Source of the DNA: a bacterium | GTDB taxonomy: Bacteria; UBA10199; 2-02-FULL-44-16; JAAZCA01 | Assembly: GCA_963674695.2 (NCBI GenBank) | Contig: CAXXGI010000001.1 | Coordinates: forward strand, 832,001 to 896,000 | DNA: 64,000 nt | Reading direction: 5' to 3' | Part shown: piece by piece, positions 5,991 through 9,885 of the stretch | Layout of the letters: each line of letters starts with the position of its first letter | How positions within the stretch are numbered: position 1 is the first letter of the stretch | Notes under the pieces: model-generated | Seen by the model: the letters and a program-made list of their open reading frames with translations, nothing else | Database searches by the model: none | Told to the model about the DNA's origin: nothing | Program-made: the position numbers and the translations under genes

Positions 5991-6029
5991 AGCGGTTTAC
6001 AATTCCGAAGAAAACGGGATATTTGCCAG

Positions 6030-6626
6030 ATGGCCTTCAATCGCAAAGATCACTTCTACCAGCGCGCCAAGCGGGAGAAAAAGGCTTCGCGCGCGGTCTA
6101 TAAGATTGAGGAGATGCAGCGCCGCTTCCGCCTCGTCGCAAAGGGGGATTGCGTCCTGGATCTGGGCTGCGCCCCGGGCGGCTGGCTGCAGGAGCTCTCG
6201 CCGCTCGTGGGCCCCAAGGGAAAGGTGATCGGCATCGACCTGTTGCCGCTCAAGATCGCGCCGCCGAAACACTGCACGGTCCTTCTCGGCGACCTGACCG
6301 ACGCCGCGATGCAGGAGGAGATCGCCACGCTCGCCGGGGGAGATGTGGATTGCGTCTGCTCCGACATGTCGCCCAACCTCTCGGGCATTCCGTTCGCCGA
6401 CGCCTACCGCTCCTTCGAAATCGCCAGCCTCGCCCTCGATGTCTGTCATCGCCTGCTCAAGAGTGGCGGCCACTTCGTCGTGAAGATCTTTCCCGGCGAA
6501 GAGTTCGAGGGATTCATGCGCACGCTCAAGACCGAATTCAATCGCGTGCAAACCATCGTCCCCGAAGCCACCCGCAAGACCTCATCGGAGCGCTACATCG
6601 TTGCGCTGGGATACCGGAGAGACTGA
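6030..6626 (+). CDS. rlmE: 23S rRNA Um2552 2'-O-methyltransferase
   Basis: SRAVYK, LDLGCAPGGW, SDMSP, VKIF, SSERY (K-D-K-E tetrad). Confidence 0.95.
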   Translation: MAFNRKDHFYQRAKREKKASRAVYKIEEMQRRFRLVAKGDCVLDLGCAPGGWLQELSPLVGPKGKVIGIDLLPLKIAPPKHCTVLLGDLTDAAMQEEIATLAGGDVDCVCSDMSPNLSGIPFADAYRSFEIASLALDVCHRLLKSGGHFVVKIFPGEEFEGFMRTLKTEFNRVQTIVPEATRKTSSERYIVALGYRRD

Positions 6627-6799
6627 CATTCGCACCGCATATGAAACCATCTCATCGCCCTGCAATTCGAATCCTTCCCGTCATTGAACCTGAGTGCTCC
6701 GGCCGGTGAAGTTACCCTGTTGTAGCGCTGGCGCTCCGCTTGCACGTTTTGGCATCTGACTCGATCCGTCTTTCCTCATGAACTCATATGGATGCCCAG

Positions 6800-6980
6800 T
6801 GTGTCAATAGGGTGATCGTGCTTAAAGCGATGTTGTCTTCAATGAGCTTCAAGGGCTTTCAACCTCATATCCGCGTGCTGGTTAACGCATTAAGTTGAAT
6901 CCGATTGAAGCCTTTCCACAATCTCACCTCGGATATTGAAATCCATGTTCATGTCGTGGGCTGCTTCATTCCCCGCTTAA
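6800..6980 (-). ncRNA. Bridge/seek RNA of the IS110 element
   Basis: Non-coding 3' end with two internal loops carrying segments that match the target (CATGAAC, GGTGAG) and donor (ATTC, ATATGAG) junctions. Confidence 0.75.
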
Positions 6981-8117
6981 TTAAGCCTCCACAGCTTTAA
7001 GCTCCCTATCAACCCCCCTCAATGATTCCCAAATAAAACACAGCAACTCTCGTCCACATGCAACCTTCACCTTGTTTTTCTCTTTTCCCCGGCACAGCAA
7101 TCTACTCGACTTTTGATGCAACCGCTTCATACATCGATCGGCAATGGCTATGTATCGTTCATCTGTACCTTTTCTCATTTCCTTGAGTCGTTTGCTTACC
7201 CTTGGAATTCGAGCAGATGACTGGCATGCTTCTATCACACCGGTTCGTATATGCCGATTTCCCATCTTGCTCATGCTGAATCGATGCTCTTTTCCTCCTG
7301 AACTATATTCCCTCAAGTCCATGCCCGCATAGGAACAGAGCTTCCGTGGATGTGCAAAACGGGAAATATCTCCTATCTCTGTAATAAGGGTCATGGAGGA
7401 TAACGTGTCTAAGCCTCGATAACACCGCAAGGAATCCACTTTCTTTTTATAAAATGAGCTTTGAGCCAACCGCGCGATCTCCTTTTCATAGCAACCGATC
7501 TCTAGCTCTACCTGCTTTAAATGCATCAATAAGGAGTGAATGTTAAATTGGAAAACCTGGCTTTTATGCTTGGATGTTTGTCTTGATAGCCACTCCCGGT
7601 GCACCGCTGTCCAGTATTCTCGTCCTTTTCCCTCTTCGGTTCGATAATGAATCCCAGCGCAACGACAGGCTGAGAGGATATGCCTCTTGAGCTCCTTTGA
7701 TTGTTCTTTGAGGAACTTCCTGGAACGAACGATGCTTCGGACACATTCTTCCTCAGCATCAGGCACATGCACTATGCTCAGTTCACCGTTTCTGTAATTC
7801 CGCGCGAAGCTTCTACAATCGATCTTGTCTGTTTTTACAAATTTACCGGGCTTCTTTGGAATGAGAGAAGAGGCTATGACGTCGCAATGCCAGCCATGGG
7901 CCGAGAGATCCCGTTGAAGAGAAAATCCCAAATAAGTGCTCTCGTAGCATATTTTCAATTCTCCATTCTCCCCCCTGAGGGCATTTAACTTCTTCACCAA
8001 ATGAGCTACATTGGGCCTGCACGTAAAAGAAAACGTTTTTTCGGAATCGTTCTCTACCGCATGACCATGGAACGCATTATCATCGACATCAATACCAACA
8101 TAGACTATGTTTTTCAT
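6981..8117 (-). CDS. IS110 family transposase/recombinase
   Basis: RuvC-like DEDD (VGIDV, CYE, KTDKID) and C-terminal YSSGG serine domain; GAAGGGGGG RBS. Confidence 0.95.
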   Translation of the reverse strand: MKNIVYVGIDVDDNAFHGHAVENDSEKTFSFTCRPNVAHLVKKLNALRGENGELKICYESTYLGFSLQRDLSAHGWHCDVIASSLIPKKPGKFVKTDKIDCRSFARNYRNGELSIVHVPDAEEECVRSIVRSRKFLKEQSKELKRHILSACRCAGIHYRTEEGKGREYWTAVHREWLSRQTSKHKSQVFQFNIHSLLMHLKQVELEIGCYEKEIARLAQSSFYKKKVDSLRCYRGLDTLSSMTLITEIGDISRFAHPRKLCSYAGMDLREYSSGGKEHRFSMSKMGNRHIRTGVIEACQSSARIPRVSKRLKEMRKGTDERYIAIADRCMKRLHQKSSRLLCRGKEKNKVKVACGRELLCFIWESLRGVDRELKAVEA

Positions 8118-8413
8118 CTGGATGCCCCCCTTCGATGAGTTAAATAATTTCACCCATAGTGAATTATTTATGAGTTAACCAGCGCTCGTTACATCAAGGG
8201 CTGGGCATCCATATATTCTCGCCCGCCGGCGGAATAAGAACACATTAGATTTCTGGCGGGCTCAAACATCATTCGGAATTTCGCCTTCGGCGAAACCGTC
8301 GGCTCTTCGCAGGCCAAAACGGCACGCTCCGCGAGGCACTACAACAGGGTAACTTCACCGGCCGGAGTAGAGTCATCTCTCATGCATACAATCATAGGAA
8401 GTCACAAACATGA

Positions 8414-8561
8414 ATCCATCGTCCGGCAGTGTGTTCGGAGGGGATCTCTTCTTTCATCGCGATCGAAGCTTATGATGATGCGATGAAAGAAGAAAAAGCC
8501 GTCGAGGCGGCGTGTGAGCCGAGACGGCGGTCCCCTCCGAACACACTGCCGGACGATGGAT
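8414..8561. repeat. Long palindromic element (MITE/REP-like)
   Basis: Perfect 31-bp IR 8414-8444/8531-8561 enclosing a perfect 14-bp IR 8447-8460/8480-8493 and a GCCGTC/GACGGC arm. Confidence 0.8.
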
Positions 8562-8641
8562 CAAGACCACGACGCACGCGATGGGATTTTCCGTAGATCT
8601 CCCGGTACACCGCAAGCCGGACCCCTCCCGAAGGAGTACGC

Positions 8642-8792
8642 AAAAAAACCCACGAAGCCGTGAGGCCTCGTGGGCTTATTTGGGGAAAGGAGATGGGGGA
8701 TAAAGGTGGCGAGGGCTATCTCCTTCCCCCGACCCTCGCCAAGTCCTAAAATCACTTTGGTTGACAGGATTCGAGGTTCTAGCCTACCCTCT
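8642..8792 (-). ncRNA. Candidate small RNA B with pseudoknot/switch and terminator
   Basis: sigma28-like promoter 8799-8825; stem 8741-8732/8716-8707 whose loop pairs with 8694-8682; terminator 8674-8642 with T7; G-U pairs favour the minus strand. Confidence 0.55.
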
Positions 8793-8798
8793 GCATCC

Positions 8799-8825
8799 TT
8801 ATCGCGTTCGCGCGGGGAAAGTTGC
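8799..8825 (-). promoter_or_regulatory. sigma28/FliA-like promoter
   Basis: GCAA-15nt(CTTT...)-CGCGATAA. Confidence 0.5.
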
Positions 8826-8835
8826 TCACTTTTTT

Positions 8836-9885
8836 ATGAAAAAAATCGCCAACCTTTTCAAGAAGATAGCCCCCTGGTGCGTGGCCGCCGGGATTTTTGC
8901 CTATCTCTTCCACCTCTATCCGCCGGCCAAGGTCTGGCATGCGCTGACCTATGTGAACCTCCCCGCGTTCATCGCCTTTGCCGCGGCCTACTTCATCTTC
9001 ATCTTCGTCGTCGACAGCATCGTCATGCGTTGGGTCATCACGCACTTCTCGCATCCGGTCTCGCTCATGGATATCCTCACGGGGCGGGGTGCCACCTATC
9101 TCATCATGGTGCTCAACTATCCGGCGAGCCAAGCGGCCTATGCCTATTACCTCAAGCGTCGCTACGGCATCCCGATCTTCGAGGCATTGGGGATCTTCCT
9201 CTTCGTGATCTTCATCGATCTGCTCTGGATCATCTCGCTGGCGTTCGCCGGTTCCTTCTTTCAGGAGTACACCATCGGCGGCATCGACATCGGCCACATT
9301 GCGCGTCTCATCGGGCTGGGTGCCGCGATCTTCACCTTCGTCTGGCTCGCCTTCTGGCGACGCTGGCCCGAACGCGTTTTGGGACGGCACATCCGCATCC
9401 CCTTCATCGAACGCCTGCGCACACGCGGCGTCTTCAGTATCTTCAACAAAGCCACCGCCCCCGATTATCTCAAGGTGGCGATCATGCGCATCCCGATTCA
9501 CTTCACGATCATCATCTCGATGTATATCGTTTTGCACACCTTCAACGTCGACATCCCCTTCGTCAAAATACTGGGGAACATCCCGATCGTCTTCCTCATC
9601 GGCACGCTGCCGATCACGCCGGGGGGACTGGGCACAACCAACGCCGCAACGGTGGAGCTGCTGCATCCGTACATCACGGGAGCGATATTCGGGACGGGAA
9701 AGATCACGCCGCAGGAACTGCTCTTCTCCGCCACACTCCTGTGGATGTTCGCCAACTACAGCATGAAGGGGATCGTCGGAACCTTCTTCCTCAAGCGCGC
9801 CTCGAGCGATCTCTTCAAACCGACCGCGGACGTCCCGGAGGAAGAGGCCGAGGAGGAGGCCGCGCACATCGGGGGAAACATCTAA
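8836..9885 (+). CDS. Lysylphosphatidylglycerol synthase TM-region / flippase-like membrane protein
   Basis: Multiple TM helices, LPITPGGLG motif; TTGACA-18nt-TACCCT at 8761 upstream. Confidence 0.8.
   Translation: MKKIANLFKKIAPWCVAAGIFAYLFHLYPPAKVWHALTYVNLPAFIAFAAAYFIFIFVVDSIVMRWVITHFSHPVSLMDILTGRGATYLIMVLNYPASQAAYAYYLKRRYGIPIFEALGIFLFVIFIDLLWIISLAFAGSFFQEYTIGGIDIGHIARLIGLGAAIFTFVWLAFWRRWPERVLGRHIRIPFIERLRTRGVFSIFNKATAPDYLKVAIMRIPIHFTIIISMYIVLHTFNVDIPFVKILGNIPIVFLIGTLPITPGGLGTTNAATVELLHPYITGAIFGTGKITPQELLFSATLLWMFANYSMKGIVGTFFLKRASSDLFKPTADVPEEEAEEEAAHIGGNI

Follow-up and report, generated by a model that had tools for sequence, protein, structure and literature searches.

The closest described relatives of the locus analysed here are insertion sequences (IS) of the IS110 family. 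The IS1111 seekRNA elements ISEc11, ISKpn4, ISPa11 and ISPst6, as described in PMC11187229, carry a long non-coding region downstream of the transposase gene, a criterion of the IS1111 family (PMC11187229, PMC11208160), together with subterminal inverted repeats that have terminal extensions and measure 7-17 bp in this group. They insert at single sites without duplication, several of them, such as ISPa11, aim at repeated palindromes, and in their seekRNAs the complement of the top strand lies 5' of the complement of the bottom strand, an order that is reversed in the IS110 type (PMC11187229). IS621 uses a bridge RNA with a target and a donor module whose guides lie in internal loops, a shared dinucleotide core, a DEDD plus serine active site and a circle whose formation makes a promoter (PMC11208160, PMC11208158). 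ISPpu9 and other IS110-family elements reside in repeated extragenic palindromes (REP) and have a small RNA gene downstream of the transposase gene (PMC12288879). Here we describe an intact IS110-family element of IS1111-type architecture on the minus strand of a 64,000-nucleotide (nt) stretch of bacterial DNA (GCA_963674695.2, contig CAXXGI010000001.1, positions 832,001 to 896,000), hereafter the window, whose numbering we use throughout. Its DEDD/serine recombinase is very probably guided by a structured RNA from the 198-nt non-coding region at its right end, a reading carried by the anatomy, by the matches of the guides to flanks and to an element end, by family-wide covariation and by two independent insertions at one repeat position.

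The element shares with the IS1111 seekRNA elements the downstream non-coding region, the subterminal repeats with terminal extensions, the guide order, the single-site insertion without duplication and the aim at repeated palindromes. It differs from them, as they are described in PMC11187229, in reading G-M-D-L-R-E-Y-S-S-G where their motif is GL-P----S(t)G, in a protein of 378 amino acids (aa) and in a different, unclassified target repeat. With IS621 it has in common the two modules, the guides in internal loops, a shared dinucleotide core, the DEDD plus serine active site and, here as a prediction, the promoter made by circle formation; unlike IS621 it has its RNA in the right end and not the left, the reverse guide order, AG and not CT as the core, and long subterminal repeats (PMC11208160, PMC11208158). 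In contrast to ISPpu9 (PMC12288879), it has as its target no REP but a structured 175-bp repeat whose arms are specific to each copy. By its architecture and guide order the element is classed here as a putative IS1111-type seekRNA (bridge RNA) system. Its main parts are the following.

6783..8217, minus strand: the IS itself, 1,435 bp, from AAT at 8217 (left end) to ...CCATATGAG at 6783 (right end)
8218..8220, minus strand: GAG at the left junction, letters of the target side, of which AG is the core common with the right end
8201..8214, minus strand: left subterminal inverted repeat ATATGGATGCCCAG, a perfect 14-nt complement of 6786-6799, set 3 nt in from the terminus
6786..6799, minus strand: right subterminal inverted repeat CTGGGCATCCATAT, partner of 8201-8214, 3 nt inside the end
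6981..8117, minus strand: gene of the transposase (378 aa), with its probable start at ATG 8117 (the listed open reading frame starts with GTG at 8153); Pfam PF01548 and PF02371, NCBIfam NF033542

The 14-bp perfect subterminal repeats fall within the range given for the IS1111 group, and the non-coding parts measure 198 nt on the 3' side versus 100 nt on the 5' side. A DNA search and a family profile search agreed on two copies of the IS in the genome (3.03 Mb, 3 contigs), the second matching the first at 99%. Listing both copies with their flanks, as the original prediction had suggested, placed them at the same point of the same repeat: each has ...GGCGGGYGAG to its left and TTCATGAGGAAAG... 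to its right, and their surroundings differ beyond the repeat. At ~6 kb from copy 2 lies an uninterrupted paralogue of its site (93% identity along 526 + 882 bp); it contains no IS, and its letters are GGCGGGTG-CG-TTCATG, that is, one trinucleotide (GCG) versus GAG-IS-GAG in the occupied site. Since this paralogue holds one trinucleotide at the junction, the element is 1,435 bp long (8217..6783); the coordinates first proposed, 6783-8220, counted GAG at both junctions. The paralogue trinucleotide and the same repeat position in both copies show that insertion is site-specific and without target duplication. In related elements the left junction reads NAG (N being any base) and the right junction GAG (45/50 distinct elements), so the core common to donor and target is AG, and the GAG core specificity originally put forward has to be narrowed accordingly. 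The G preceding the AG core is a position specified by the guide, with a match in 49/49 events.

The start of the transposase at ATG 8117 was picked by agreement with relatives. The protein scored 186.6 bits against NF033542, 'IS110 family RNA-guided transposase' (cut-off 140), 32 bits against PF01548 (cut-off 29) and 59.5 bits against PF02371. Columns invariant in 25 relatives include D12, D13, E59, D100 and S273, with D97 and S272 nearly so; these residues appear to fit the DEDD plus serine active site of IS621 (D11, E60, D102, D105 and S241; PMC11208160, PMC11208158), equated by motif position only. The solved proteins of ISCro4 and IS621 are marginally similar (for IS621, E = 4.3e-7 across some 100 residues), and the HMMER alignment to ISCro4 covers the YSSGG loop. 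At E <= 1e-20 we found 700 related proteins, the nearest being 57% identical, and within the phylum carriers are few (2/92 other genomes at E <= 1e-30). Among named IS, ISSso6 comes nearest, with 96% of the protein aligned at 31.5% identity; identity with IS5075/IS4321 is 22%. ISSso6, an IS110-like element on the Escherichia coli plasmid NZ_CP050863.1, shares with our element a CCACG...GTGG hairpin in the 3' non-coding region, a homologous donor hairpin TAATGCGGTATCCAACCCGCG followed by AATATCAG, 14-bp subterminal repeats and TTGACA near the right end, and differs in core and end (..ATATCA), in its guides and in the phylum of its host. Protein comparison suggests that the transposase represents a deep branch, a clade that may already feature in the supplementary trees or tables of PMC11187229 and PMC11208160.

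Relatives of the element were collected from 5 genome loci and 80 metagenome loci. Alignment A2 consisted of 64 distinct 3' regions and that of the element itself, 65 rows in all. RNAalifold run on the MAFFT alignment recovered only the stems P3 and P6 (defined below), and named structures were therefore tested instead. The structure composed of P1, P2, P3, P4/P5 and P6 had 82.8% of its cells paired over the 65 sequences, compared to 27-43% for slid controls. Its covariation score was 0.286 versus 0.138 for shuffles and was reached by 0/500 shuffles, a figure that is not a probability, the rows being related sequences. The first of its two predicted modules comprises these features.

6963..6968, minus strand: P1 5' strand TGAAGC, pairs with 6906-6911 and encloses the target hairpin
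6906..6911, minus strand: P1 3' strand GCTTCA, letters that had been assigned to the closing stem of the donor loop
6954..6959, minus strand: P2 5' strand CCACGA, pairs with TTGTGG at 6916-6921; 84% paired, third pair AU in 39, UA in 13 and GC in 11 sequences
6916..6921, minus strand: P2 3' strand TTGTGG, partner of CCACGA
6947..6953, minus strand: 5' target guide CATGAAC, complements the top strand across core G and the right flank, TTCATG
6930..6945, minus strand: P3 apical hairpin TGGAT...ATCCG, 88.6% paired, with both-sided changes in 4/5 pairs
6923..6928, minus strand: 3' target guide GGTGAG, same sense as the left flank GGCGAG; predicted to pair with the bottom strand, where U at -4 would face G

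The target hairpin had been drawn as CCACGA-[CATGAAC]-A-TGGAT...ATCCG-A-[GGTGAG]-A-TTGTGG. This drawing proved exact to the base at 6959-6916, and single-sequence folding recovered the same hairpin. The right junction, G+TTCATG (6783-6777), has its reverse complement in CATGAAC (6953-6947), and GGTGAG (6928-6923) agrees with the left flank GGCGAG (8223-8218) at 5/6 positions, both as originally read, and both correspondences exceed chance in the family. The complement of the top strand thus precedes that of the bottom strand in the RNA. Covariation of guides with targets among homologous IS ends, which had been proposed as a check, was found on both sides. Over 61 distinct insertion events the right guide matched its own flank at a mean of 5.08/6 positions versus 1.91 for the flanks of other elements, and at least 5/6 positions matched in 43/61 events versus 1.8% of non-self pairs. 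By position, from +1 to +6, the match was 97, 95, 95, 86, 80 and 66%, falling to background at +7; these rates cover 59 events, with the register chosen per element from two options, which gives a slight bias to own matches (the default register held in 49/59). The left guide matched its own flank at a mean of 3.08/4 versus 1.03 for non-self flanks, with identities of 100, 84, 73 and 51% at -3, -4, -5 and -6 and background at -7. This count covers 49 events, four elements (L019, L062, L067 and L078) having been dropped for a left junction without AG at the expected place. The target footprint is therefore 12 nt long, N4-AG-N6, and reads GGYG-AG-TTCATG here.

One could suppose that the protein chooses its site by recognising the hairpin of the repeat and that the RNA matches are incidental. 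Both insertions do lie in repeat copies, though only 9 of the 59 genomic sites with at most one mismatch to the 12-mer lie in repeats, which hints that context beyond 12 nt matters. Relatives, in contrast, insert in unrelated sequences, and their guides follow those sequences position by position; reprogramming has moreover been shown experimentally for related systems (PMC11187229, PMC11208160). We therefore consider such protein-only recognition extremely improbable, and guidance by the RNA is retained below.

The second predicted module, the donor module, lies downstream of the first.

6894..6902, minus strand: 5' strands of P4/P5, GGAT-TCAAC, pair with 6853-6863; helices 4 and 5 are 72% and 76% paired; contain ATTC at 6897-6900
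6853..6863, minus strand: 3' strands of P5/P4, GTTGA-AA-GCCC, partners of 6894-6902
6872..6889, minus strand: P6 hairpin TGCGT-TAACCAGC-ACGCG (in RNA UGCGU-UAACCAGC-ACGCG), nearly invariant, 99.7% paired, with compensatory changes in 2 pairs
6864..6870, minus strand: donor guide ATATGAG, follows the P6 hairpin and is identical to the right end plus core
6842..6846, minus strand: CTCAT, downstream of the donor module; complement of the ATGAG that the donor guide and the right end have in common

The inner GCGT/ACGC stem that had been predicted for the donor loop is present. The identity of ATATGAG (6870-6864) with the right end, also predicted, extends through the family: the donor guide equals the right end at positions -3 and -4 in 50/50 distinct elements, and the variants ATACGAG and ATAAAAG change on both sides together with the right end. 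CTCAT covaries in part with this word: 74% of the 50 elements have a complementary letter in the column that faces right-end position -4.

Two other parts of the original drawing fared less well. In it the target hairpin stands by itself, the donor loop is closed by GGCUUCAAUC/GGUUGAAAGCC, and AUUC serves as the guide for the left end. In the present copy this fold and the family structure are isoenergetic (-25.3 vs -25.4 kcal/mol), and the closing stem itself is strong (-9.2 kcal/mol). Across the 65 sequences, however, the halves of the closing stem GGCTTCAATC/GGTTGAAAGCC, formable in this copy, are only 50% and 61% paired, and its own duplex energy (-3.60) is no better than that of non-self combinations (-3.03). 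P1, which uses the same letters in part, reaches -8.24 kcal/mol versus -3.88 for non-self and is more stable than the closing stem in 61/65 sequences. As for ATTC (6900-6897), it is present in all 4 elements with an AAT left end, which belong to only two lineages, but also in 2 elements with an AAA left end, and it does not covary with the left end, its family mean against own left ends being 1.26/4 versus 1.21 against those of other elements. The fold first drawn is quite unlikely, and it is not the structure of the family; because the two folds are isoenergetic, the closing stem may be an alternative conformer in this copy. Comparison of the aligned 3' regions indicates that the stem enclosing the target hairpin (P1) is conserved and the donor closing stem is not, and we proceed with the structure containing P1.

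The two genomic copies differ at 10/1,438 positions and have identical ends. Nine of the differences lie between 7001 and 6914, and six of these fall within the 41-nt target hairpin (6954, 6940, 6938, 6937, 6926 and 6914), where none breaks a stem (6914-6954 compared with copy 2). Copy 1 has the guide GGUGAG and the flank GGCGAG; copy 2 has the guide GGCGAG and the flank GGTGAG. Each copy would therefore mispair with its own site, with U opposite G in copy 1 and C opposite A in copy 2, and each guide is perfect for the site of the other. Three sibling insertions among the relatives (L027, L028 and L030) likewise differ at -4. These reciprocal guide alleles could reflect drift at a tolerated position, or they could instead reflect guidance in trans.

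The mismatch at -4 of each guide with its own site also bears on the possibility that the two copies are residents that are no longer mobile, the insertions being old and the guide RNA region a fossil. There are only 2 copies, despite free 12-mer sites in the genome: 2 are exact, one of them in a repeat copy, and sites with no more than one mismatch number 59, of which 9 fall within copies of the repeat. Contigs of three DNA runs from one study showed no empty-site or circle joints over 6400-8600; these are presence-only data, and the contigs break at the IS ends and are therefore uninformative on empty sites or circles. Against such a fossil state speak the full-length open frames of both copies, with all family-invariant residues in place, the identical ends and the few differences, and the six hairpin changes that leave every stem intact. 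We hold it unlikely.

The left end and the right end hold further features of possible regulatory interest.

8119..8127, minus strand: GGGCATCCA over the ribosome-binding site, just ahead of the ATG; complementary to the left subterminal repeat, forming a leader hairpin
8167..8188, minus strand: leader motif, an imperfect inverted copy of the donor-loop hairpin region (22 nt, 82%, versus 6872-6893)
6802..6807, minus strand: TTGACA, a -35-like hexamer, 16 nt from GAGAAT once the circle has formed

In the leader, 8203-8211 pairs with 8119-8127 (fold of -35.5 kcal/mol, z = -4.65), and a complementarity of at least 8/10 recurs in 47/54 distinct left ends of relatives, with covarying variants. The hairpin looks translation-occluding. 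Complementarity between leader and donor hairpin is also seen across the family (mean 11.55/16 versus 9.13 for shuffled leaders). Since the leader holds an inverted copy of the donor hairpin, its RNA could pair with the guide RNA, or both ends may hold a second binding site. The placement of TTGACA (6807-6802) 16 nt from GAG+AAT in the predicted circle junction was read correctly in the original prediction. Among relatives, TTGAC occurs in the last 45 nt of 32/55 distinct right ends, in 31 of these 18-19 nt from the end. ISEc11 and ISEc21 (PMC11187229), and IS621 too, have described junction promoters. A simple scan of the linear element found no promoter-like or terminator-like sites on the minus strand.

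The target of the two insertions is a ~175-bp interspersed repeat, of which the genome holds 13 further uninterrupted copies.

8218..8338, minus strand: left part of the interrupted target repeat, ends with the hairpin GCCCGCC...GGCGGGC and then GAG
6726..6782, minus strand: right part of the interrupted target repeat, TTCATGAGGAAAG...
6697..6728, no strand: copy-specific inverted-repeat arm, partner 8336-8367, 32 nt, 97%
8336..8367, no strand: opposite copy-specific arm, partner 6697-6728
C3:220014-220250 and C2:72129-72376: examples of other copies of the repeat

The consensus fold of the repeat from 11 copies has 52 pairs, 13 of them with compensatory changes, and the IS is inserted after consensus position 119/173, at the 3' base of the hairpin GCCCGCC...GGCGGGC. 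The prediction of a palindromic repeat family thus stands insofar as both insertions lie in one repeat family; the palindrome is one hairpin within a larger structured repeat of ~175 bp, and not a simple palindrome. Perfect or near-perfect inverted repeats of 17-37 bp flank 11/13 uninterrupted copies. These arms are unrelated between copies, each matching its own partner only, two duplicated loci excepted. Ten uninterrupted-repeat loci compared with Rfam gave nothing above chance, the best matches being a plant microRNA precursor model (E = 0.8), hit because of the long hairpin, and a small nucleolar RNA model (E = 0.29). A DNA search found the repeat in 0/92 other genomes of the phylum, and no relevant paper stood among the listed matches of a literature word search for repeats that combine a conserved core with unique arms.

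Other repeats and hairpins were also noted. A segmental duplication (C3:385.4-386.8 kb and C3:391.4-394.3 kb, ~93%) includes the same repeat copy with the same arms, with the IS in one paralogue and GCG for GAG in the other. Three long perfect hairpins (C3:7055-7132, C3:635656-635731 and C3:919414-919473) have unrelated arms of 24-33 bp and a common 12-nt loop CCNACCGGGYGA, and the genome also contains loop-less perfect palindromes of 42 and 52 bp. At 8472-8545 in the window the summed contig depth was 10-50x that of neighbouring bins in three DNA runs, which points to a short repeat shared with much other DNA. The target repeat, with arms differing at every copy, is a less ordinary object than the IS and merits its own study. 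A bolder reading of the locus, to which we give little credence, would be that the sibling copies were caught in natural re-programming, perhaps guiding each other in trans, that the repeat represents an apparently undescribed class with a ~175-nt structured core and copy-specific perfect arms of 17-37 bp, and that the IS has specialised as a parasite on a different and possibly mobile element.

Several points weigh against our reading of the locus as an intact RNA-guided element. With 378 aa the transposase is longer than members of the IS1111 family are said to be (330-350 aa; PMC11187229), and an L stands where their motif has P. Neither copy has a 3' guide that is perfect for its own left flank, with one mismatch at -4 in each. 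Scans by mutual information and complementarity for a donor guide to the left end gave no convincing column; NNCUU just 5' of the P6 hairpin showed a one-position signal against the left end (64% vs 35%) and fits this copy at 3/5. No Rfam 15 model matched within 6000-9000 at E <= 1, which says only that no curated model fits. The -10 box made by the circle would be weak, with a match to TATAAT of 4/6 here and 3/6 in most relatives, and a degenerate circle-junction pattern had 0 matches in the genome and in 110 loci, with no tandem joint either. Finally, the relatives behind the family counts are not mutually independent. The central proposal of an intact recombinase and guide-RNA pair aimed at a repeat family is nevertheless supported, as far as DNA sequence can tell, by the NF033542 assignment, the guide order and the presence of both copies at the same point of the repeat.

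We infer RNA production, binding of the RNA by the protein, a circle intermediate, a junction promoter and present-day activity, and the cycle would run as follows. A structured guide RNA with two modules would be transcribed from the 198-nt non-coding region of the right end. In the target module (6968-6906), P1 would enclose a hairpin (P2 and P3) whose internal loop holds the two guides, CAUGAAC pairing with the top strand of G+TTCATG, right of the site, and GGUGAG with the bottom strand of GGYG+AG, left of the site. The donor module (6902-6853), built on the invariant hairpin UGCGU...ACGCG, would present AUAUGAG for pairing with the bottom strand of the right end of the element plus core. 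Excision would, on the model of ISEc11 and IS621, yield a circle that brings the right end next to the left (...CCATATGAG joined to AATATATGG...) and places the -35 box TTGACA 16 nt from GAGAAT. Recombination at the AG core would follow, between this circle and a 12-nt N4-AG-N6 site at the 3' base of the conserved hairpin of the repeat.

The mechanism itself is not new, having been described in 2024, and it stays unchanged by these results; the element adds one clean example of it. Together with its about 60 relatives, the element allows an under-studied branch of RNA-guided recombinases to be compared in one compact data set, which gives a 12-nt programmable footprint, a covariation-supported fold with an enclosing stem, and a conserved leader hairpin that covers the start codon. 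Such details help to annotate IS ends correctly and to choose orthologues for engineering.

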